Notes under the pieces: generated by a model
Databases searched by the model: none
What the model saw: only the letters and a program-made list of their open reading frames with translations
What the model was told of the DNA's origin: nothing
Translations under genes and position numbers: made by a program
Sequence record: PZ212788.1
DNA from: a phage
DNA length: 64,000 bases
Reading direction: 5' to 3' (one strand)
Shown here: positions 39,841 through 50,458 of the stretch, piece after piece
Layout: each line of letters starts with the position of its first letter
Position numbering within the stretch: position 1 is the stretch's first letter

Positions 39841-40422
39841 ATGATTTTCATCTACGAACATTTCAAAACTCGTAAAGAAGCACGCGACCGCCGTGCAGAA
39901 CTTGAGAAGAAGGGTTTCACATGTGCTATTGAGAAAGGTACTACAACATGGACACTGGCAGTAGGTGCCCCAGAGCTGTTTGATCCTGACCGAGACAGTG
40001 TCTGCTATACCCGTGAGGATTTTGAAACCCGCGAAGAGGCCCGTTTATTCCGCTACGGACTGGAAGACAACGGTAAGTACGCCATGATCTTAGATTCAGG
40101 TGAAGGTTCCGTTAAACGTTGGGGCGTGGTATACCCACTGTGTGTTGTTCACGGTGTGGGGGTCACTGGGGTAGCAATCAAGTCAGAAGAACCTTTAGTA
40201 GAAGTCAAAGATCCGGTGCTGGAAGTGGTGAGCAGTGTGTCTCAGCAACAGTCTCGAAGCATCGAGCCTTTGGTAGTTATTTGCGGGGAACTCCTCCAGA
40301 TCACCTGCAACGAAGGCATTTTTGAAATTCGCCGCAGCGAAAGTGAGGAAGTTTACCAGAAAGTCTTCGACCATATTTCTGTTCAGGAATATGATGAGGC
40401 AATTGGTGAAATCCTTGTCTAG
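39841..40422 (+). CDS. rIIB: rIIB-like protein, N-terminal portion ending at in-frame TAG (193 aa)
   Basis: RBS AAGGAGA; same reading frame as 40468-41046; C-terminal YQKVFDHISVQEYDEAIGEI resembles the T4 rIIB mid-region. Confidence 0.5.
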   Translation: MIFIYEHFKTRKEARDRRAELEKKGFTCAIEKGTTTWTLAVGAPELFDPDRDSVCYTREDFETREEARLFRYGLEDNGKYAMILDSGEGSVKRWGVVYPLCVVHGVGVTGVAIKSEEPLVEVKDPVLEVVSSVSQQQSRSIEPLVVICGELLQITCNEGIFEIRRSESEEVYQKVFDHISVQEYDEAIGEILV

Positions 40423-40467
40423 CTGGAACGCAAGAATGAGTTCACCACACTTGCAGACAACCTGATC

Positions 40468-41046
40468 ATGAAAGATGGTAAGCTCTACTACTACGGTGTA
40501 GAGATGCGATCCACCATTGCAAAGAAAATTGAGAAAGATTATGCAGACGGAACGCTGGATGACCGCTATGTGAAATTCCTCGTTCGCCTGCTACGCAATC
40601 CTTCTGCAAAATCTGTAAACATGCTCTACGATTTTATGCAGGCCAACGATATCCAGATTGCAGAAGATGGTCGAATCATTTGCTACAAAGGGGTTCAGTT
40701 TAACGGCAGCAAGTGGGTAGATTGGCACAGTGGTAAAGTTCCACAATACCAGGGTGCTTTTGTATCCATGCCTCGTAACTTTGTAGAGGATGATCCGGAA
40801 GCTGCGTGCTCCTATGGCTTACACTGCGCCAGCAAAGAGTATGCAAAGAGCTACGGCACTGTAATGACTGTCATGGTTGACCCTGCAGATGTGGTTAGTG
40901 TGCCATACCAACACAATAGCGCCAAGTGCCGTGCATGCCGCTATGAGATTGTGGTAGCTCCGGAAGCACGCAAAGATGGAGACCCTATTGAATATGTAGT
41001 TGATCGTGACGGTAACACTATCGACATTCTTTACGAGGAGGCGTAA
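40468..41046 (+). CDS. rIIB: rIIB-like protein, C-terminal portion (192 aa from first ATG after the TAG)
   Basis: FLVRLLRNPSAKSVNMLYDFMQANDIQIAEDG, CSYGLHCASKEYAKSYG and DPADVVSVPYQHNSAKCRACRYEIV match the recalled T4 rIIB C-terminal domain. Confidence 0.7.
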   Translation: MKDGKLYYYGVEMRSTIAKKIEKDYADGTLDDRYVKFLVRLLRNPSAKSVNMLYDFMQANDIQIAEDGRIICYKGVQFNGSKWVDWHSGKVPQYQGAFVSMPRNFVEDDPEAACSYGLHCASKEYAKSYGTVMTVMVDPADVVSVPYQHNSAKCRACRYEIVVAPEARKDGDPIEYVVDRDGNTIDILYEEA

Positions 41047-42416
41047 TGGAAAAAGGGCAGTATGATGTAGGCACAGATGCTGCCCTCGTTGCAATCATGA
41101 GCGGTGAGAATGTCTTCGTTTCAGGACCTGCAGGTTGTGGGAAGACGTATCTCATCAACATGATCCAGTCGATGTATGGAGACTCTTGCATAACGGTTGC
41201 CCCGACAGGGGTAGCCGCTTTAAACGTTAATGGAGCAACAGCACACCGAACCTTCGATCTTGCAGCAGGTGTGAGCATGGAGTCAGACTGGACCGCAATA
41301 AGGGCAAAAACAGCAAAGCCTTTGAAAAGCAAGGCATTTACCATCCTAATTATCGATGAAATCTCTATGATCCGTGCTGATAAGTTTATAGAGATGGATA
41401 GGAAACTCCGCTTCCTTCGAAAAAATGACAAACCTTTCGGAGGCATACAGGTCATATTGTTTGGCGATTTTTACCAGGCACCTCCTGTTGTCTCTTCTAT
41501 GGAGAAGGAAGCCTACTTCAACTTCTACCATACGGACCTGTGTTGCTATACCGAATCTTGGAAAGAGCTTGACCTCCACAACATAGCCCTAATAGATCAG
41601 TTCCGACAGGAGTCTATTCGATTTGCTACAATGCTCAACTGTGTTCGTGAGGGTCGTCGCATAAAAGAGGTTGTAGCAGAACTTAATGCTCGCTGTTACA
41701 AAGGAGGTGTACCAACAGACGCTCTCACAATTTGCGCCACCAACAAACAAGCAGAGGAAGTGAACAGAAGGTTCTATGATGCCATCAACGCCCCAGAGAA
41801 GGTATACACTGGTGAAATGAAGGGTAAGTTTCCCTCCACCCTGCCAGTTGAGCAGGAGATGAAGTTGAAAATTGGCATGAAAGTTATGATAACCGCCAAC
41901 GATGTTGACCCGACGCACAAAGTACCTTATTATGTTAACGGAACACGTGCTACAATTGTTAAATTTAAGAACAAGGCGGTGGTGGTAGAGCTTGAAGATG
42001 GAACACAGGTTGACATAGAGCAGAGGTTGTGGGAGAATAACGAGTATAAGCCATCCCAGAGATACAACATTGCAGAAAGGAAGATGGAGAAGTTTATAGA
42101 GAGGGTAGTGATTGGGTCATACAAGCAACTTCCTCTGAAATCTGGGTACGCTGTAACATCTCATAAAAGTCAAGGACTTACACTAGATTGTTACAACCTA
42201 GACCTTGGAAAGAACGGAGCTTTCTCTCCTGGGATGACGTATGTCGCTTTGAGTAGAGTTAAGACAATACAAGGAATAAACTTGTTGCGTCCACTAAGAG
42301 AGGTTGACATTATTGTTGACCCGCGAGTCGTAGAGTTTTACAATACAACATTCCCTGACTTAGACAAAATTGTCAGGAAAGATTTTGAAACCAGAGCAGA
42401 AGAGGGGGACGTATGA
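41046..42416 (+). CDS. Dda/Pif1-like superfamily 1 DNA helicase
   Basis: Walker A VSGPAGCGKTY, Walker B ILIIDEISM, C-terminal TSHKSQGLT motif. Confidence 0.8.
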   Translation: MEKGQYDVGTDAALVAIMSGENVFVSGPAGCGKTYLINMIQSMYGDSCITVAPTGVAALNVNGATAHRTFDLAAGVSMESDWTAIRAKTAKPLKSKAFTILIIDEISMIRADKFIEMDRKLRFLRKNDKPFGGIQVILFGDFYQAPPVVSSMEKEAYFNFYHTDLCCYTESWKELDLHNIALIDQFRQESIRFATMLNCVREGRRIKEVVAELNARCYKGGVPTDALTICATNKQAEEVNRRFYDAINAPEKVYTGEMKGKFPSTLPVEQEMKLKIGMKVMITANDVDPTHKVPYYVNGTRATIVKFKNKAVVVELEDGTQVDIEQRLWENNEYKPSQRYNIAERKMEKFIERVVIGSYKQLPLKSGYAVTSHKSQGLTLDCYNLDLGKNGAFSPGMTYVALSRVKTIQGINLLRPLREVDIIVDPRVVEFYNTTFPDLDKIVRKDFETRAEEGDV

Positions 42417-42754
42417 GTTTGTGGAGAAATATCGTTAACTACGTGTGCGGCAATCCAACTCCTGAAGAGAAGGATGTTGTGATTCACGATTTTACTAAAA
42501 GATCTCGTGAAAAAGATCTACTGCTAACAAAGGTGACTGATAAAGATCCTGCAGTAGGGGACTGGGCAGGTTTTGCGTTTACATCGGACAAATACACCTT
42601 TAACAAAGGTGACTACCTTGTTGTGGATTTTAACGAAGACATTGAGGGTGCTGAACCTTACTATCAAACCCTTATTGTTGCAGGGTGTGTTGATCTCTCT
42701 GCAGGCATGCACAGTTTGATTCTTTTTGAGCTTGACTCTGAAGACCTTGAGTAG
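42413..42754 (+). CDS. Hypothetical protein (113 aa)
   Basis: Overlapping start ATGA; RBS GAGGGGGA. Confidence 0.45.
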   Translation: MSLWRNIVNYVCGNPTPEEKDVVIHDFTKRSREKDLLLTKVTDKDPAVGDWAGFAFTSDKYTFNKGDYLVVDFNEDIEGAEPYYQTLIVAGCVDLSAGMHSLILFELDSEDLE

Positions 42755-42770
42755 TAAGATGTGAGTATAA
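42742..42770 (+). promoter_or_regulatory. Sigma70-type promoter
   Basis: -35 TTGACT, 17-nt spacer, -10 TAAGAT, spanning the stop of the upstream gene. Confidence 0.5.
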
Positions 42771-42781
42771 AGGGGAGGCAC

Positions 42782-42799
42782 TCCTCCCCACAAAAACTA
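42782..42799 (+). promoter_or_regulatory. 5'-proximal mRNA stem-loop
   Basis: GGGGAGG-CACT-CCTCCCC with no U-tract, about 5 nt downstream of the predicted start site. Confidence 0.45.
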
Positions 42800-42814
42800 A
42801 GGAAGCACTAAACG

Positions 42815-43117
42815 ATGAAACGTTATAAACCATACACTTTTGAAATCGATTTCGAACTTGACGATATGTTTACTGTGGAAGCTCAGGCAGTTGTCCAGTT
42901 GCCAGACTCGGAGTGCCGTGACTCTGATGTTGACTATTACGGGTTTAGACAAATTACCGATGTGCGTGTTTACCACAACGGTGAAGAGGTGGACTTCCAC
43001 CAACTGCCAAACGATATGCGCCACTCAATTTACAAACGTGCAGCCCGTGAACTAGAGTCCTATCTGGATGCAGCGACGACAGCAGCTGCATTTGCTGAAG
43101 AAGTGGGAGGTTTCTGA
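42815..43117 (+). CDS. Hypothetical protein (100 aa)
   Basis: RBS AAGGAAG. Confidence 0.45.
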   Translation: MKRYKPYTFEIDFELDDMFTVEAQAVVQLPDSECRDSDVDYYGFRQITDVRVYHNGEEVDFHQLPNDMRHSIYKRAARELESYLDAATTAAAFAEEVGGF

Positions 43118-43524: not shown

Positions 43525-44007
43525 ATGTCAGATTTTATGTGGAAAGTTGGTTATTCCTCCCCTGAAATGTGTAAGGCCTGTTTTGTGAAAATAGGTCGCG
43601 AGGATATCGACAAAGTGATTCTTAAGTTTCGTGATGTGGCTGTAATCGGCAACCGAGTGCTTAAGCACTTAAAGAATCTGAAGCTCACCAAAAAGAAGTT
43701 CTTTGGACTTTTCGAAGAGAAGGTTGATGCTTGGACCCATTGCATTCAGGAAGCTAAATCTCACTACAGTGCTATCATTACCCCAGAACGGGTAGCCAAG
43801 ATGGAAGGATTCATCAACAGCACAGAGTTTGAGTGCCTGAAAGCTGCACTTGATAGTTATCCGAAATGCCTCAAGCACTTGGACAAGTATGTAGAAAAGG
43901 ATGGGGAAATGTACCTAACCCTGGACGCATATTATGAGATGCAAGAAATTTTAAATTTAGATTTGACATTGGTATCCACCGAGTATACAATAGGTATCCA
44001 GGTTTAA
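43525..44007 (+). CDS. Hypothetical protein (160 aa)
   Basis: RBS AAGGAGAAGG. Confidence 0.45.
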   Translation: MSDFMWKVGYSSPEMCKACFVKIGREDIDKVILKFRDVAVIGNRVLKHLKNLKLTKKKFFGLFEEKVDAWTHCIQEAKSHYSAIITPERVAKMEGFINSTEFECLKAALDSYPKCLKHLDKYVEKDGEMYLTLDAYYEMQEILNLDLTLVSTEYTIGIQV

Positions 44008-44013
44008 CACTAG

Positions 44014-44041
44014 GCCCTGCCCGAAAGGGTGGGGCTTTTTG
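44014..44041 (+). terminator. Rho-independent terminator
   Basis: GCCCTGCCC-GAAA-GGGTGGGGC stem-loop followed by TTTTTG; same hairpin recurs at 55519. Confidence 0.75.
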
Positions 44042-44058
44042 CATTAGGAGACAGCAAA

Positions 44059-44823
44059 TTGAAATTCATCTACAAAGAACACTACCACAAAGGTGTTGTG
44101 TGGAGTCTATTTGACGGGTCTGGTGGTGCAGTTATTGACTGGGCAAAAGCTGGGTACCTGTGCCTGTGCTTTAATGCAGAAGGTGCTGACCACGGCAGTT
44201 ATGCAGAGGTGATAACCGATCATCCTAACATTCACTATGTGGATTATTGGATTGACCCATGGTTCCCTCAGGAAACTTTTTGCATGTATCCAGCTCCAGA
44301 CTTTATTCTTGCATTTCCTCCGTGCACGCATTTAGCGGTATCAGGTGCTGCACATTTTAAGAAAAAGCTGGCTAAGGATCCTTTGATCCAAATTAATGCT
44401 GTAAAGGATGCTCGGGTTGCGGAAGAGTTGGGAGAGATTTACGATTGCCCGTGGCATGTAGAGAATCCTGTAGGGGTTATGTCCACACTGTGGCGAAAAC
44501 CTGATTACCGTTTTCATCCTTCGGATTATGGTGGGTATTTACCGGAGGATGATGTAAACCCCTGGTTTCCTGAATTTATAGCTCCACGTGATGCCTATCC
44601 AAAAATAACTTGCGGCTGGATAGGCAATGGATTTATAATCCCGGCCACAAAACCTGTCCCGCAAATAGTTGACGCGGTTAGCGGGTATTCCATGCAACAC
44701 GCCAAGCTGGGTGGAAAGAGTGCAAGAACGAAGATGATCCGAAGCCTCACGCCACGTGGCTGGGCAAAAGCCGTATTCTTAGCAAACGAGCCTGTAGTAA
44801 GGAGCAGAATTAATGGGAAGTAA
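44059..44823 (+). CDS. C5-cytosine methyltransferase-like protein, atypical and short (254 aa)
   Basis: TTG 44059 with RBS AGGAGA preferred over GTG 44029 inside the terminator stem; motif I-like LFDGSGG, motif IV-like FPPCT, motif VI-like VENPVG. Confidence 0.4.
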   Translation: MKFIYKEHYHKGVVWSLFDGSGGAVIDWAKAGYLCLCFNAEGADHGSYAEVITDHPNIHYVDYWIDPWFPQETFCMYPAPDFILAFPPCTHLAVSGAAHFKKKLAKDPLIQINAVKDARVAEELGEIYDCPWHVENPVGVMSTLWRKPDYRFHPSDYGGYLPEDDVNPWFPEFIAPRDAYPKITCGWIGNGFIIPATKPVPQIVDAVSGYSMQHAKLGGKSARTKMIRSLTPRGWAKAVFLANEPVVRSRINGK

Positions 44824-46891
44824 ATTTATGGCATCTGCATACAACCGTTTCGGTGAGCCAAACCCGAAAGCAACTAAGTATAAAAGTGGGGGAAGTGTGA
44901 AACGAGACTATCGTGATGAAAAAGAGGTTGAAACTGTAGAGACTGTTTTAGAAAATACTAAAATTGTCCCTGTCCCACAACAAAATATCGGTCTGATGGC
45001 TGCACAATATTTTGGTGTGCGATCAGCATTGTCACAAGAAGACGGTGTGACAGTCACTGCAACATATTTCCCATATTACGACCGCTACGGAAATCTGTCC
45101 GGTTTCAAAAAGCGTGACTGGACTATTCCTAAAGAACAAAGGGGCCACTTCTCCGTTGTTGGCATCGTAAAGGCCAACTCCCAGATGTTTGGTCAAAAGC
45201 TGTGTGCATCTTCCAACAACCGTAAGCAGATTAACGTTTGTGAGGGAGAAGGTGATGTTATTGCAGCATGGCAGGCTGCATATCAGATACAAGTAAAAGG
45301 GATTCTCACCAACGCTAAAGCCCCGGCAAAGGTGAAGCAGTGGGCTAAAGAGGTCCAGGACGGGATCGACGCAGTTATCAACGGTGGTGATCTGGCAGGA
45401 AAACCCTGCCTGCCTTTTGTTGGAATTAACTGTGGATGTGCAAACGCAGTAGATACTTTTGCAAACAATGAGAAGTTTATCCGTAGCTATGGAACAGTTG
45501 TGCTGGCAATGGATAACGATGCAGCTAACGAGGTAGAGAAGCAAAAACACGTCATTAAAGGTGTTGAGGCCACGCACAATATCGCAGCATTTTTGATGGC
45601 TGATAACGTTTACCACGTAGAATACCCTGGTGAAGTAAATGACCCTGACGGGGTAAAAGATATCCGTGACATGCTGAAGGCTAAAAAGCTGGAAGATATT
45701 GTCAACATGTTCCGGCATCCTGTTAAATATGTGCCTGATGCTGTGTCGGACTTAGAAGACTTCTCTATCGAGTCTTTGCGGAAAAAGACTTCCAACGGGG
45801 TAGATATCAGCGCAGAGTTCCCAAAACTGCAAAAAATGCTAAAAGGCTTGCACAAAGGGACACTCGTAATGCTTACAGGTCCATCAGGCGGTGGTAAAAC
45901 AACCGTGGCTAAAAAACTGGAACACTGTATTGCAAGATATCTAATGGACCCGACATGCCCGAAGGCTGATGACTATGAAGAGGATGATCGTCTATGTATG
46001 ATCCATCTTGAGGAGGACCCAGAGGAAGCAATTAACTCCTTGTATGCAAACCAGTTAGGGTTTGATGTTAAAGAGTTTGTTGAAGATCCTAGCCAGTTTT
46101 TAACTGATCAAGAACACGCAGAGATTCACCAATCATGGGCAAAAGCTGGAAAAATCAAAGTGTTCAAACATTTCGGATCTATTCCGGTGGACGAGTTGAT
46201 TACTAAGCTTAAGCAAATGGTTTGCCTGTACCATTGTCGTTATATTGTGCTGGATCACCTGTCCATGGTAATTTCAGGGCTTAATGTTAAAGATGAGCGA
46301 AAAGAACTGGACATGGCTATGACCCAACTGGCTGCGTTTTGTAAGCAGTTTAACGTGTTTATCTTGGTGATCGCTCACCTCAAACGTACAGAGATTGTGC
46401 CTCCTAAGGACAAGGATGGTAACCCATTACCTTTCTGGTATCCTGTGCGAAAAGAGAATTTGCGAGGATCGGCTGGGCTTGAACAGTTGAGTTGGGTAGT
46501 CATAGGTGTCGAGGCCGAAGAAATGGTGGATCGTTCTCGTGGGCGTGTCCGTCTGGTAGGTCTTAAAAACCGTCCAGCAAAAACTTTAGGTATTGCTGAC
46601 ACTTTAGTTATGGATCCGCATACAGGTAAGTTCCATGATGCCAGTAATTGGTACTGGGACAAAGAAATGCAGATGTTTACAGACGGAGAAGGTGGGGAGG
46701 TTGTTTGGAGACCTCAGGCCATGTTTGAGGACCAAGAGCATGCAGTTGTAGAAACACCTATGGGCAAGGTTGTAGCCGATAAGGTTGTAACTCCTACTAT
46801 TAAGCCTGTTGACACGCAGGAAGACCTCCAGTACGATGATCCATCCTCTGACCCGGTCCCTGGTTTTGAGGATGATGAAACGCCTTTTTAA
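44813..46891 (+). CDS. Primase-helicase, T7 gp4-like (Toprim plus RecA-type hexameric helicase)
   Basis: Toprim VCEGEGDVIAAW and LAMDNDAAN; Walker A GPSGGGKTT; Walker B and arginine finger region IVLDHLSMV...IAHLKR; no N-terminal zinc ribbon seen. Confidence 0.8.
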   Translation: MGSKFMASAYNRFGEPNPKATKYKSGGSVKRDYRDEKEVETVETVLENTKIVPVPQQNIGLMAAQYFGVRSALSQEDGVTVTATYFPYYDRYGNLSGFKKRDWTIPKEQRGHFSVVGIVKANSQMFGQKLCASSNNRKQINVCEGEGDVIAAWQAAYQIQVKGILTNAKAPAKVKQWAKEVQDGIDAVINGGDLAGKPCLPFVGINCGCANAVDTFANNEKFIRSYGTVVLAMDNDAANEVEKQKHVIKGVEATHNIAAFLMADNVYHVEYPGEVNDPDGVKDIRDMLKAKKLEDIVNMFRHPVKYVPDAVSDLEDFSIESLRKKTSNGVDISAEFPKLQKMLKGLHKGTLVMLTGPSGGGKTTVAKKLEHCIARYLMDPTCPKADDYEEDDRLCMIHLEEDPEEAINSLYANQLGFDVKEFVEDPSQFLTDQEHAEIHQSWAKAGKIKVFKHFGSIPVDELITKLKQMVCLYHCRYIVLDHLSMVISGLNVKDERKELDMAMTQLAAFCKQFNVFILVIAHLKRTEIVPPKDKDGNPLPFWYPVRKENLRGSAGLEQLSWVVIGVEAEEMVDRSRGRVRLVGLKNRPAKTLGIADTLVMDPHTGKFHDASNWYWDKEMQMFTDGEGGEVVWRPQAMFEDQEHAVVETPMGKVVADKVVTPTIKPVDTQEDLQYDDPSSDPVPGFEDDETPF

Positions 46892-46949: not shown

Positions 46950-47684
46950 ATGAACGAGTTCAGAGATCACTGTGTAGCCAATCACTTGTGGTCAGAAATA
47001 TTGGAGTATGACGGTCAAAATCTTTTTTGGAAGATAGACATTCTGGCAGGTAGCGGTGTAGGATATGTTAAAACTTCAGCAGGCTCCAGAGCCGACAAGG
47101 GGCAAGATGCTGATGGCAGGCCTGTGGTTAGCCTAGGAAAGCATTGCACTAAAGGTGCCCACGTCATAATTTGGGAAATGTTTAACGGTCCTGTACCGGA
47201 AGGGTATGAGGTTGACCACATCAAGGAGATAAGGGAAACAGGTGGTGTGGCTGATAACAGTATTCAAAATTTGCAACTACTCGAGCCCACAGATAACAAA
47301 AAGAAAAGTTGCAAGATACCTCGTAGCAACAACAAATCTGGCAGGGTCGGGGTGCACTATTCTGAAGAAAGAGAGGCATGGGTAGCTCAAGGCACAGACT
47401 CTGTAGGGGAAAGGGTCTGGCTAGGCCAGTACAGAACTTTCGAAGAGGCAGAGTGGGCAAGAAAGTTCTTCGAAGATAATGGTTTTTCGCACAAGAGTGG
47501 AAGAGCCGTGCAGTATAATAACACCAGCGGTTGCTCAGGGGTGAATTGGGATAAAACCCATGAGAGATGGGTAGCCAGAATTTATGTAGATGGTAAAAGG
47601 AAATGCCTTGGGTATTTCAAGAATAGGGACGATGCAATAGCTGCAAGAAAGAATGCTGAGAAGAAACAGGAGGAGACAGTATGA
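46950..47684 (+). CDS. HNH homing endonuclease with AP2-type DNA-binding domains
   Basis: HNH core EGYEVDHIKE...NSIQNLQLL; two AP2-like repeats SGRVGVHYSEEREAWVAQ and SGCSGVNWDKTHERWVARIY; inserted between primase-helicase and polymerase. Confidence 0.8.
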   Translation: MNEFRDHCVANHLWSEILEYDGQNLFWKIDILAGSGVGYVKTSAGSRADKGQDADGRPVVSLGKHCTKGAHVIIWEMFNGPVPEGYEVDHIKEIRETGGVADNSIQNLQLLEPTDNKKKSCKIPRSNNKSGRVGVHYSEEREAWVAQGTDSVGERVWLGQYRTFEEAEWARKFFEDNGFSHKSGRAVQYNNTSGCSGVNWDKTHERWVARIYVDGKRKCLGYFKNRDDAIAARKNAEKKQEETV

Positions 47685-50458
47685 GTAATTGGTGCTTCGA
47701 TCTGGAGGCCTCCGGGCTTTTGGAAGACCCAGATCTTTATTATCACTGCGGCCTGTTTAAAGAGCTGAATAAGAACCGTTTTATGCTGTTCCTTCCTCTA
47801 AATGACCGCACACACTACTCCGAGGAGGATATAGAAAAGGCTAAGAACTTCATTCTGGCAAAGAAAACTCTTTATAAAGATTTTGAAGTTCGCATAGCAG
47901 ATTTTTCAGAGTTGGAAGGTTGGCTTACAGGAAATTCTGACTGGTCACCAACAGCTTTGAACTGCCATAACTGCTACAGTTATGACTTTATGCTGATGGA
48001 AAGATTATCTGGTATTCATTTTGATATGTTCCGTGATCCTAAATGTATGGGGACTATCAACGATCACCAGGTTAACCTGTTTGATACGTTGGCGATGAGC
48101 CGAATCTTGTGGCCTGATCGCCCTTTACCAAAAGGTTGTCCGGACTCTGTATTCAACCCGGTTACTAAGAAAATGCAACCTGTTGGTCCTCACGGCCTTA
48201 TGGCATGGGGCTACGCCCTTGGTAACCAGAAAGTTCAAATTGATGACTGGCGCGATCTTCCGTTGTGGAAGTATGTGGATCGTGTATTCGAGGACGTTAT
48301 CATCCAGGAGCTGCTCTGGAAAGAGCTGGTAGCGGAATCAAAAGGTGTATTCTACGGCAAATCTGACATGCAGAACTTTATGTACGATCCAGCCAAAGAG
48401 AAGCCGAAAGGGTTCAAGAAAATCACCTGGAAGAACGCATTACGCCGAGGCATGCTGCAGCACTTCCTGATGGAGCTGCAGGCCCGTCAGGGTGTGTATT
48501 TCGACATAGATGGGGCTATTGCTTTACGTGACCGTTGCGATGCGTGGATGAAAGAGATCGCTGATCGTGTTGAACCTCAACTTCCTTTAAAAGAGTTGTC
48601 AATGTCTCAGCGGCCCAAGTTCCCTGAAAAGCCGTTTAACCAAGATGGGACAATCTCCAATAATGGTTGGAAATGGTTAAAAGATAAGCTTGGCTATCCT
48701 GTAGACATGAGCGCTTTAGAATTCAAAGCCCCGCCTAAGCGAGCATTTACCTCCACAGGAGATGTCAGCAAGATGGGGATAAAATGGTGCGAAGAGATGG
48801 GCTGCAAAGACCCCGACAAGATGGCTGATTTCTTGAGAGGTTATATTAAGGGCACCTCCACACCACAACCTTTACCTAAAGAGCTGATGGATCAGGCAAT
48901 AAGTGATCTGCAGCAGAAGCGAATGCCTGACTGCAAGATACCTATGAAAATCAGCAATCAGGACGACATTAAGCGATACCTGATCAGTGCTGGTTGGCTC
49001 CCAACAATGTGGAGAACTAAGGATGTAACTAAAGACAGCAAGAAGAAAGCTCTACCTGATGCAGATGTTGATGCACGAGTGTATGCATATATGGACGAGC
49101 TTTTAGAGTCAGAGTATTGTGACCTAATTATCAACTTCTGGAACAAAACTGATGCTAAGTTCCAGACAACCGTGCACAAGTTCCGAAGCTTTCCTAACTC
49201 CGAAAGGATTAAAAAGGAAGTATTCGGGAAAATACGTAGAAAAGCTAGGGCACTTATTACTTCTCCGCAACTGAAAGATACGTTTGGACACCTATGCCCG
49301 AATCTTGAAAAATTGAACGGAGAGATGGCTAAAGATATCGTCTTGTGGTTATCATTGCGAAACCGCAGATCGGTCCTTGATCCAATTAAGGAGGATAAGG
49401 TTGATACTGGTCTTCTTAATCACCCACGTTTGAAGATTGACCATAAGCTTCCTGCTAAAAGCTCTGGATTAACAAACACTTCCAGACAGAAACACAGTAT
49501 TTGTGCAAACATGCCTAAACCATCTCCTAAAGTGGTTATGGGTAAAGAGATGCGTAGTCTGTGGGGTGTTCCTCCGGGATACTTTGAGATCGGTATTGAC
49601 GGGTCCAACTTAGAGCAGCTTATCGGGGCTTGGGGTGCCTTTGAGTTCGACAACGGCTTGTATTATGATGTTGTAAGTAACGGAGACGCACACCAAAACA
49701 ATGCTGAGGCATATACAAAAGTGGCAGGCAGAGAGGTGTCCCGTAACGACGGTAAACCTATCACGTATGGGGTTATGTACGGGGCACAAAAAGATAAAGT
49801 TGCAGATATGCTGGACATCTCCCCAGAGTTGGGACAAAGGGTAATCGATGCACTCTGGGATGCCAACCCAGGTCTTAAGGGGCGCAAAGAGGATCTGGAG
49901 AAATTCTGGGAAGCAACAGGTAAGAAGTTTATCTACTCTTTTGATGGTCATGCTATCTGGACCCGATCTAAACACTCTTTACTTAATGCATACCAACAAA
50001 ATGGCGGTGCATCGTTGTGTGACTTAGTTGGAATACTCATGCACCACCAGATGGTGAAGCGTGGGTGGTACGATGAAGGTGTTCGTCGTATTATCTATTA
50101 CCATGACGAATATCAGCTTCAAGTCCCTGACACACCGAAGTATAAGACTGTGTACACCTTCGACACAATCGAAGAACTGGAAGCATTTAAGGCAGAGCAG
50201 GAGGCCAAACTTCATGTGTTCGACGGTCATAAGTACAAAAAGGCACGCAAGGATGAGGACGGAAACGAAGTGGTTGACAGAGACGGAAACACGGTGTACG
50301 ATCCTATCCTGAATGATGACGGAAAGCTTGAACTTATCTGGAGCCCTGTGGGTGAAATGGTGGTGCATTGCTTCTGGCAAGCTTCTAAAATGATGGGCGT
50401 CCCGTTCCAGATCACAGGTGAATACTTGTGTGGTCGTAATTGGGGCGATTGTCACTAA
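47681..50458 (+). CDS. Family A DNA polymerase, T7 gp5-like with 3'-5' exonuclease domain (925 aa)
   Basis: Exo I CFDLEASGL; GPHGLMAWGYALG resembling T7 gp5; motif B ITYGVMYGAQ; motif C YYHDEYQLQV; C-terminal NWGDCH. Confidence 0.9.
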   Translation: MSNWCFDLEASGLLEDPDLYYHCGLFKELNKNRFMLFLPLNDRTHYSEEDIEKAKNFILAKKTLYKDFEVRIADFSELEGWLTGNSDWSPTALNCHNCYSYDFMLMERLSGIHFDMFRDPKCMGTINDHQVNLFDTLAMSRILWPDRPLPKGCPDSVFNPVTKKMQPVGPHGLMAWGYALGNQKVQIDDWRDLPLWKYVDRVFEDVIIQELLWKELVAESKGVFYGKSDMQNFMYDPAKEKPKGFKKITWKNALRRGMLQHFLMELQARQGVYFDIDGAIALRDRCDAWMKEIADRVEPQLPLKELSMSQRPKFPEKPFNQDGTISNNGWKWLKDKLGYPVDMSALEFKAPPKRAFTSTGDVSKMGIKWCEEMGCKDPDKMADFLRGYIKGTSTPQPLPKELMDQAISDLQQKRMPDCKIPMKISNQDDIKRYLISAGWLPTMWRTKDVTKDSKKKALPDADVDARVYAYMDELLESEYCDLIINFWNKTDAKFQTTVHKFRSFPNSERIKKEVFGKIRRKARALITSPQLKDTFGHLCPNLEKLNGEMAKDIVLWLSLRNRRSVLDPIKEDKVDTGLLNHPRLKIDHKLPAKSSGLTNTSRQKHSICANMPKPSPKVVMGKEMRSLWGVPPGYFEIGIDGSNLEQLIGAWGAFEFDNGLYYDVVSNGDAHQNNAEAYTKVAGREVSRNDGKPITYGVMYGAQKDKVADMLDISPELGQRVIDALWDANPGLKGRKEDLEKFWEATGKKFIYSFDGHAIWTRSKHSLLNAYQQNGGASLCDLVGILMHHQMVKRGWYDEGVRRIIYYHDEYQLQVPDTPKYKTVYTFDTIEELEAFKAEQEAKLHVFDGHKYKKARKDEDGNEVVDRDGNTVYDPILNDDGKLELIWSPVGEMVVHCFWQASKMMGVPFQITGEYLCGRNWGDCH

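Follow-up and report, generated by a model that had tools for sequence, protein, structure and literature searches.

A short phage gene of family phrog_757 very probably encodes an active Dcm-like DNA C5-cytosine methyltransferase

The DNA analyzed here is a 64,000-nucleotide stretch from a phage (sequence record PZ212788.1; the whole stretch is called the window below), in which a gene located among replication genes encodes a short 'Dcm-like' protein of 254 amino acids. By analogy with a characterized homolog, the product is very probably an active S-adenosylmethionine (AdoMet)-dependent DNA cytosine-C5 methyltransferase of phrog_757, a family of short (~210–260 aa) phage proteins. We judge the enzyme active because its residues Cys89 and Glu135 are invariant among its relatives, the ratio of non-synonymous to synonymous differences (pN/pS) is 0.011 and a 54%-identical homolog is reported active. 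This function is already known, since near-identical genes carry the annotation and the characterization of a family member is available. Our analysis covered the open reading frame (ORF), its motifs, the fold, the family membership and the selective constraint; formation of 5-methylcytosine (5mC) in vivo is taken from the literature for the 54%-identical homolog.

The characterized homolog is the Dcm enzyme encoded by a 711-bp gene (dcm) of phage K42, which is a strain of KarlJaspers, and it is reported to trigger the retron Ec86 defence (bioRxiv 10.1101/2023.08.16.553469). All four K42 mutants escaping this retron carried mutations in, or just upstream of, dcm, and expression of K42 Dcm was toxic only when retron Ec86 was present; by mass spectrometry after liquid chromatography (LC-MS), 5mC on the retron Ec86 msDNA was high with wild-type K42 Dcm and low with the C82A/E128A/K175A/K176A mutant (bioRxiv 10.1101/2023.08.16.553469). 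For comparison we used the KarlJaspers Bas06 gene bas06_0055, which at 711 bp has the same length as K42 dcm. The window protein is 54% identical to the Bas06 Dcm over 235 residues (E = 2e-86), and the two share membership of phrog_757, a similar length (236 aa for the KarlJaspers/K42 enzyme, 254 aa for the window protein) and the same order of conserved blocks. Three of the four residues mutated in inactive K42 Dcm are kept, C82, E128 and K175 being equivalent to C89, E135 and K182. The proteins differ in a 10-residue N-terminal extension of the window protein and in two segments, which read DIIPAR and DNPGW in KarlJaspers and EFIAPR and GYSMQH in the window protein. Their carriers differ as well, KarlJaspers being a 51 kb siphovirus of the Drexlerviridae, whereas the window gene belongs to a 130–140 kb myovirus group.

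Conservation was counted over 83 diverse relatives (32–55% identical), in which only six positions are invariant, Cys89 and Glu135 among them. The original prediction, made from the sequence of this stretch alone, had pointed to the strings LFDGSGG, FPPCT and VENPVG, and all three were found in the product as motifs I, IV and VI (Table 1). LFDGSGG aligns in register with SLFDGIATG of DNMT3B, with motif I of M.HaeIII and with LFAGIGG of E. coli Dcm. Motif IV holds the predicted catalytic nucleophile Cys89 (codon 44323–44325), the counterpart of C82 in K42/KarlJaspers Dcm, while VENPVG aligns with the ENV of E. coli Dcm and contains Glu135, the counterpart of E128 in K42 Dcm and the predicted N3-protonating residue. 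With Cys89, Glu135, Asn136 and Pro137 kept in all or nearly all relatives, these motifs are not chance matches; Asn136, Pro137, Lys182, Thr184, Arg228 and Gly234 are each kept in at least 95% of the relatives. Further downstream, the D178-x-Y180-x-K182-x-T184 block is conserved at D178 (79/83), Y180 (83/83), K182 (82/83, equivalent to K175 of K42 Dcm) and T184 (81/83). This block, together with R177, precedes the strand that corresponds to the motif VIII position, and is probably the counterpart of motif VIII. Near the C-terminus, the block RSLTPRGWAKAVFLAN (R228 in 81, S229 in 76, P232 in 79, G234 in 81 and A238 in 78 of the relatives) leads into the last long helix of the AlphaFold model (residues 233–251) and is the predicted counterpart of motifs IX/X. 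Comparing the gene with that of the sister phage WalterGehring revealed 25 synonymous and one non-synonymous codon differences, from which the pN/pS of 0.011 was obtained.

Two readings of the original prediction, an inactive enzyme or an enzyme of this fold acting on another substrate, are not supported by these data. A catalytically dead protein that keeps the methyltransferase fold and binds only DNA or AdoMet would account for the short length, the missing Pfam match and the lack of a canonical motif VIII and of a target-recognition domain. It is nonetheless extremely unlikely, as the catalytic Cys and Glu are invariant with Asn136 and Pro137 nearly so, the pN/pS is as low as 0.011, and the 54%-identical homolog is reported active, in contrast to its active-site mutant (bioRxiv 10.1101/2023.08.16.553469). 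The same homolog is reported to make 5mC in DNA, which speaks against another substrate. Methylation of RNA instead of DNA, for instance of tRNA C38 as by DNMT2, is as improbable as a dead enzyme, for the homolog reportedly methylates the DNA portion of msDNA, the gene is located in a DNA replication module and DNMT2-like enzymes are structurally less similar to the protein.

The fold was settled by structure comparison. The AlphaFold model (pLDDT 88.9, pTM 0.89) possesses the AdoMet-methyltransferase fold with C5-methyltransferase architecture, and in a Foldseek search against the Protein Data Bank (PDB) the top 50 matches were all to DNMT3A/B/C or to the CP-933R prophage methyltransferase, with a best E of 7.5e-6. 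Sequence evidence alone for a C5-methyltransferase identity is thin. A single-sequence search of PDB sequences returned only C5-methyltransferase matches, all of them sub-threshold, and a profile of 30 close relatives matched only DNMT3B and M.HaeIII (E 0.24–0.44), with motifs I–IV in register. A transitive link to the classical family PF00145 does exist, because three homologs 55–57% identical to the window protein (P0069, P0072 and P0054) exceed its Pfam gathering score (24.7–28.5 bits, cut-off 22), the match being confined to profile positions 4–94, the N-terminal third.

Several results weigh against the identification. The broader profile of 83 relatives matched Rossmann dehydrogenases and no methyltransferases in the PDB; when the family profile was aligned to Dcm of E. 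coli K-12 with hhalign, the match was not significant (probability 0.7, E = 0.081) and spanned motifs I–VI only, with motifs I, IV and VI in register. The window protein itself gave no Pfam-A match at E ≤ 10 save one spurious hit, PF00145 not being matched, and no NCBIfam match. The canonical QxRxR of motif VIII is not present in the window protein, and the fourth residue mutated in K42 Dcm, K176, is replaced by Ile183, a variable position with K in 34 of the 83 relatives and hence no defining residue of the family. Since the sequence matches are either sub-threshold or to dehydrogenases, sequence methods alone would leave the fold unsettled. We conclude that the protein is a member of the C5-methyltransferase fold class and is neither an E. 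coli Dcm ortholog nor CmoX; as no significant similarity to E. coli Dcm was found, the name 'Dcm-like' describes a function and does not imply orthology.

The gene is no oddity but belongs to an annotated and widespread phage family, which the original prediction had missed. The profile phrog_757 ('DNA methyltransferase') matches it at full length (E = 5e-87, residues 10–261 against profile positions 3–226 of 247), and the protein fits the layout of that family, a single domain with the blocks PPC, ENP, D-x-Y-x-K-x-T-x-x-W and R-S-x-T-P-x-G. It is 99.2–99.6% identical to the annotated genes of WalterGehring and EduardKellenberger, and the BASEL genomes name the ortholog 'Dcm-like C5 cytosine methyltransferase'. 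By tblastn, 1504 phage records carry a homolog, among them Drexlerviridae, Dhillonvirus, Webervirus-like Klebsiella phages, RB49-like phages and others; 117 of these records hold a copy at least 90% identical, which is almost all of the 127 records matching the region. An exhaustive profile search yielded 2041 clusters at 50% identity (E ≤ 1e-3), and nearly all of the best 150 of them have lengths of 210–260 aa. From these numbers (1504 records, 2041 clusters, nearly all of the best 150 being 210–260 aa) the gene is not a truncated oddity but one of a large family of short proteins carried mostly by phages. At the sequence level, however, the word 'atypical' was apt, neither Pfam nor NCBIfam matching the protein; PADLOC gave no match for it either. 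As the family is unseen by Pfam and NCBIfam, automatic pipelines often label its members hypothetical.

Comparison with known enzymes places the protein closest in structure to the DNMT3 catalytic domains. It shares with DNMT3A and DNMT3B the 'LFDG' of motif I and has, like them, a small recognition region instead of a large target-recognition domain, and an R-x-W motif stands at the start of the last helix in both (GRSW in DNMT3A, PRGW in the window protein). Identity is only 13–15%, however, with a TM-score of ~0.5 and a non-significant best sequence match (E = 0.24), and motif IV reads SPCN in DNMT3A/B but PPCT here. The dimer and tetramer interfaces and the CpG specificity of DNMT3 are not to be assumed for the window enzyme. 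With the PF00145 enzymes M.HhaI, M.HaeIII and E. coli Dcm, it has motifs I, IV and VI in common, in equal order and register. These classical bacterial type II enzymes differ in being 327–472 aa long with a target-recognition domain of 80–100 residues, and in having ENV, PCQ and QxRxR where the window protein has ENP, PPCT and no QxRxR and stays below the Pfam threshold.

A third comparison concerns CmoX (PDB 8yf3), a phage DNA cytosine C5-carboxymethyltransferase, and with it the reading that the window enzyme transfers a group other than methyl, such as carboxymethyl from carboxy-SAM, giving 5-carboxymethylcytosine. CmoX is likewise of phage origin and has the P-P-C catalytic motif IV, its selectivity comes from an Arg replacing Asn304 of HhaI, and a candidate counterpart, Arg233, opens the last helix of the window protein; moreover, E. 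coli makes carboxy-SAM through CmoA (PMC12783734). We nevertheless consider this reading very unlikely. The hallmark of the 333-aa CmoX is SPPC plus R350, whereas the window protein has FPPC, with F at that position in 76 of the 83 relatives, and Arg233 is conserved in only 64 of them (77%). DNMT3A also has a motif X Arg (GRSW) and uses AdoMet. CmoX is accompanied by CmoA and frequently by an amide ligase, and neither a phage-encoded CmoA nor a ligase gene was found among the ten genes neighboring the methyltransferase. Finally, the 54%-identical homolog gave 5mC by LC-MS.

Classical C5 methyltransferases have 80–100 residues in the target-recognition region between motifs VIII and IX, whereas DNMT3A/B have a small recognition region and work as oligomers. 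That the window protein is too short for a normal-sized target-recognition domain was borne out, as only ~20–30 variable residues lie between the W187..P195 block and R228-S229. The whole T184–P232 stretch measures 37–62 residues across the 83 relatives, ~20–30 of them truly variable, and is flanked by the blocks T184-C-x-W187-x-G-x-G-F-x-x-P195 and R228-S-x-T-P-x-G. The only stretch of the family that is hypervariable in both length and sequence is variable segment 2 (residues ~196–221, ATKPVPQIVDAVSGYSMQHAKLGGKS), making it a candidate mini target-recognition loop. The DNMT3 parallel provides a lead, not a result, for how the phage enzyme may bind DNA.

Segment 2 co-varies with the six residues 172–177 (segment 1): a Pro at the fourth position of segment 1 pairs with an 'NPGW' loop and its absence with a 'GYSxQH' loop (counts 37/3/1/98, Fisher p = 5e-29, uncorrected for phylogeny). 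Two relatives that are 87% identical (P0026 and P0045) differ mainly in segments 1 and 2, a difference that resembles a module swap and suggests a modular recognition element. It is conceivable, and we put it forward only tentatively, that the two segments form a swappable mini recognition module setting the target sequence of the family. If so, the Vequintavirus (GYSxQH) enzyme would methylate a motif other than that of the K42 (NPGW) enzyme, neither enzyme would be genuinely equivalent to a CCWGG-specific Dcm, the family would comprise the smallest self-sufficient DNA C5 methyltransferases, and DNA would be read in a DNMT3-like, possibly oligomeric, way. A variable region so small and modular could help to understand or engineer cytosine methyltransferases of minimal size.

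The window enzyme belongs to the GYSxQH type and its K42/KarlJaspers counterpart to the NPGW type; because both variable segments differ in type, the target motif cannot be transferred from the K42 enzyme. The bacterial host MG1655 is dcm-positive. CCWGG as the target was, in the K42 study, an assumption based on E. coli Dcm and supported only by the loss of defence upon mutating the CCTGG of the msDNA in MG1655 (bioRxiv 10.1101/2023.08.16.553469). The window holds 111 CCWGG sites against 114.9 ± 10 expected, neither depleted nor enriched, and with a frequency as expected the count is uninformative on specificity.

We infer the catalytic roles, the recognition segments, the timing and the biological role as follows. 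With M.HhaI and DNMT3 as models, the target cytosine would be flipped into the pocket, where Cys89 (PPC of motif IV) would attack C6 while Glu135 (ENP of motif VI) protonates N3; the methyl group would then be transferred to C5 from AdoMet held by the LFDGSGG loop, and beta-elimination would release 5-methylcytosine. DNA is probably read by segments 172–177 and ~196–221 around the D-x-Y-x-K-x-T block, possibly with oligomerization as in DNMT3. As it lies within the replication module and shares 11 nt with the primase/helicase gene, the gene is probably expressed along with replication, and its product would mark newly made phage DNA; other DNA in the cell would be marked as well. A likely consequence would be a shield against restriction enzymes that fail to cut when the target site of the methyltransferase carries 5mC, and another would be exposure to defences sensing foreign cytosine methylation, as with retron Ec86/Eco1 and the homolog.

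Restriction evasion is the conventional reading of the enzyme's role and a plausible, though unproven, one. A lesser possibility, which we regard as doubtful yet worth retaining, is that the active DNA methyltransferase serves mainly another purpose, marking replicating DNA or interfering with a host function or defence. Counting against evasion, the BASEL study (PMC8594841) reported exceptional sensitivity of the Vequintavirinae, which carry the gene, to the six restriction-modification (RM) systems that it used. In the Drexlerviridae, too, no simple link of methyltransferase genes to restriction resistance was found. To our knowledge, none of the six BASEL systems targets CCWGG or another cytosine-methylation-sensitive site that the enzyme might cover, and for this reason the observed sensitivity is no real test of evasion. 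In several unrelated phage groups the homologs adjoin or overlap a helicase gene, and one structural neighbor in BFVD carries the same fold within a 1397-aa helicase-domain protein; both fit a non-restriction role, as does the strong constraint on the gene although the homolog triggers retron Ec86. On the other side, site-specific orphan methyltransferases of phages are classically anti-restriction, and no alternative process was identified.

Since one family member is a known retron trigger, presence of the gene may predict phage sensitivity to retron Eco1; our literature search found no usable report testing Vequintavirinae against this retron. Phage T5 is sensitive to retron Ec86. A tblastn search (E ≤ 10) of T5 (NC_005859 positions 1–100000, all but the last 21.7 kb) found no homolog of the family; if T5 is indeed Ec86-sensitive, another trigger or a different methyltransferase would be needed.

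The reading frame was present exactly where it had been predicted, encoding 254 aa from a TTG start (Table 1). TTG 44059 was taken as the start because AGGAG lies eight bases upstream and the WalterGehring ortholog is annotated with the same start. GTG 44029 was rejected as a start, the codon lying within a hairpin and having no ribosome-binding site. This GC-rich hairpin is located between the stop of the upstream ORF and the ribosome-binding site of the methyltransferase; it resembles an intrinsic terminator and may act as terminator of the genes before it, as an attenuator or as a hairpin that stabilizes the 5′ end. A sigma-70-like promoter match sits in the 3′ end of the upstream ORF, with the hairpin starting ~20 nt downstream of it. 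The 118 nt 5′ of the gene contain one difference from WalterGehring, compared with 26 in 765 within the gene.

Table 1. Features of the methyltransferase gene and its surroundings, in window coordinates.
Feature	Position	Strand	Remarks
PIF1-like helicase gene	41046-42416		
Sigma-70-like promoter match, TTGACA-17-TACAAT	43963..43991	+	11/12, consensus match only
GC-rich hairpin, GAAA loop, then U-tract	44012..44037	+	11 pairs; dG -22.8 kcal/mol, z -3.1
Shine-Dalgarno AGGAG	44046..44050	+	8 nt 5′ of TTG; same in WalterGehring
Short 'Dcm-like' DNA C5-cytosine methyltransferase coding sequence	44059..44823	+	254 aa, TTG start, TAA stop 44821-44823
Motif I, AdoMet-binding loop LFDGSGG, residues 17-23	44107..44127	+	family consensus L-F/Y-D-x-T/S-G
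Motif IV, FPPCT, residues 86-90	44314..44328	+	Cys89 83/83; position 86 = F in 76/83
Motif VI, VENPVG, residues 134-139	44458..44475	+	Glu135 83/83, Asn136 79/83, Pro137 82/83
EFIAPR (residues 172-177, variable segment 1) and D178-x-Y180-x-K182-x-T184 block	44572..44610	+	
Variable segment 2, ATKPVPQIVDAVSGYSMQHAKLGGKS, residues ~196-221	44644..44721	+	'GYSxQH' type
C-terminal conserved block RSLTPRGWAKAVFLAN, residues 228-243	44740..44787	+	start of last long helix
DnaB-like primase/helicase gene	44813..46891	+	DnaB_C E 1.9e-13, AAA_25 E 2.1e-15
HNH + AP2-domain homing endonuclease gene	46950-47684		between primase/helicase and DNA polymerase genes
Family A DNA polymerase gene	47681-50458		uninterrupted, 925 aa

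The window comes from a Vequintavirus, one of the rV5-like myoviruses of E. coli; over the 10 kb around the gene it is 97–98% identical to genomes of this group such as WalterGehring, EduardKellenberger, HdK5 and FFH2. The position among replication genes was found as predicted, with a PIF1-like helicase, a DnaB-like primase/helicase and a family A DNA polymerase nearby. The primase/helicase, whose WalterGehring counterpart is annotated 'DNA primase/helicase', has an ATG that overlaps the 3′ end of the methyltransferase gene by 11 nt, and owing to this overlap the two genes are probably co-transcribed and translationally coupled. The polymerase gene, uninterrupted in the window, is annotated in WalterGehring as two joined pieces around a second homing endonuclease gene.

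At 42755-42814 the window is without the 1.3 kb 'putative N6 adenine methyltransferase' gene that is present in WalterGehring, HdK5, FFH2 and others, where it sits between the homologs of ORFs 42413-42754 and 42815-43117. From this sequence comparison, a second methyltransferase near the studied gene appears as a presence/absence polymorphism. The rIIB homolog (39841-41046) contains an in-frame TAG at 40420-40422 where WalterGehring has TGG (Trp194), splitting it into ORFs 39841-40422 and 40468-41046; the TAG reflects either an amber mutation of natural origin or an error in sequencing. The N-terminal part (39841-40422) possesses two similar short segments (residues ~5–40 and ~55–90) and gave a weak, sub-threshold SPOR-domain match (E = 7.8e-4).

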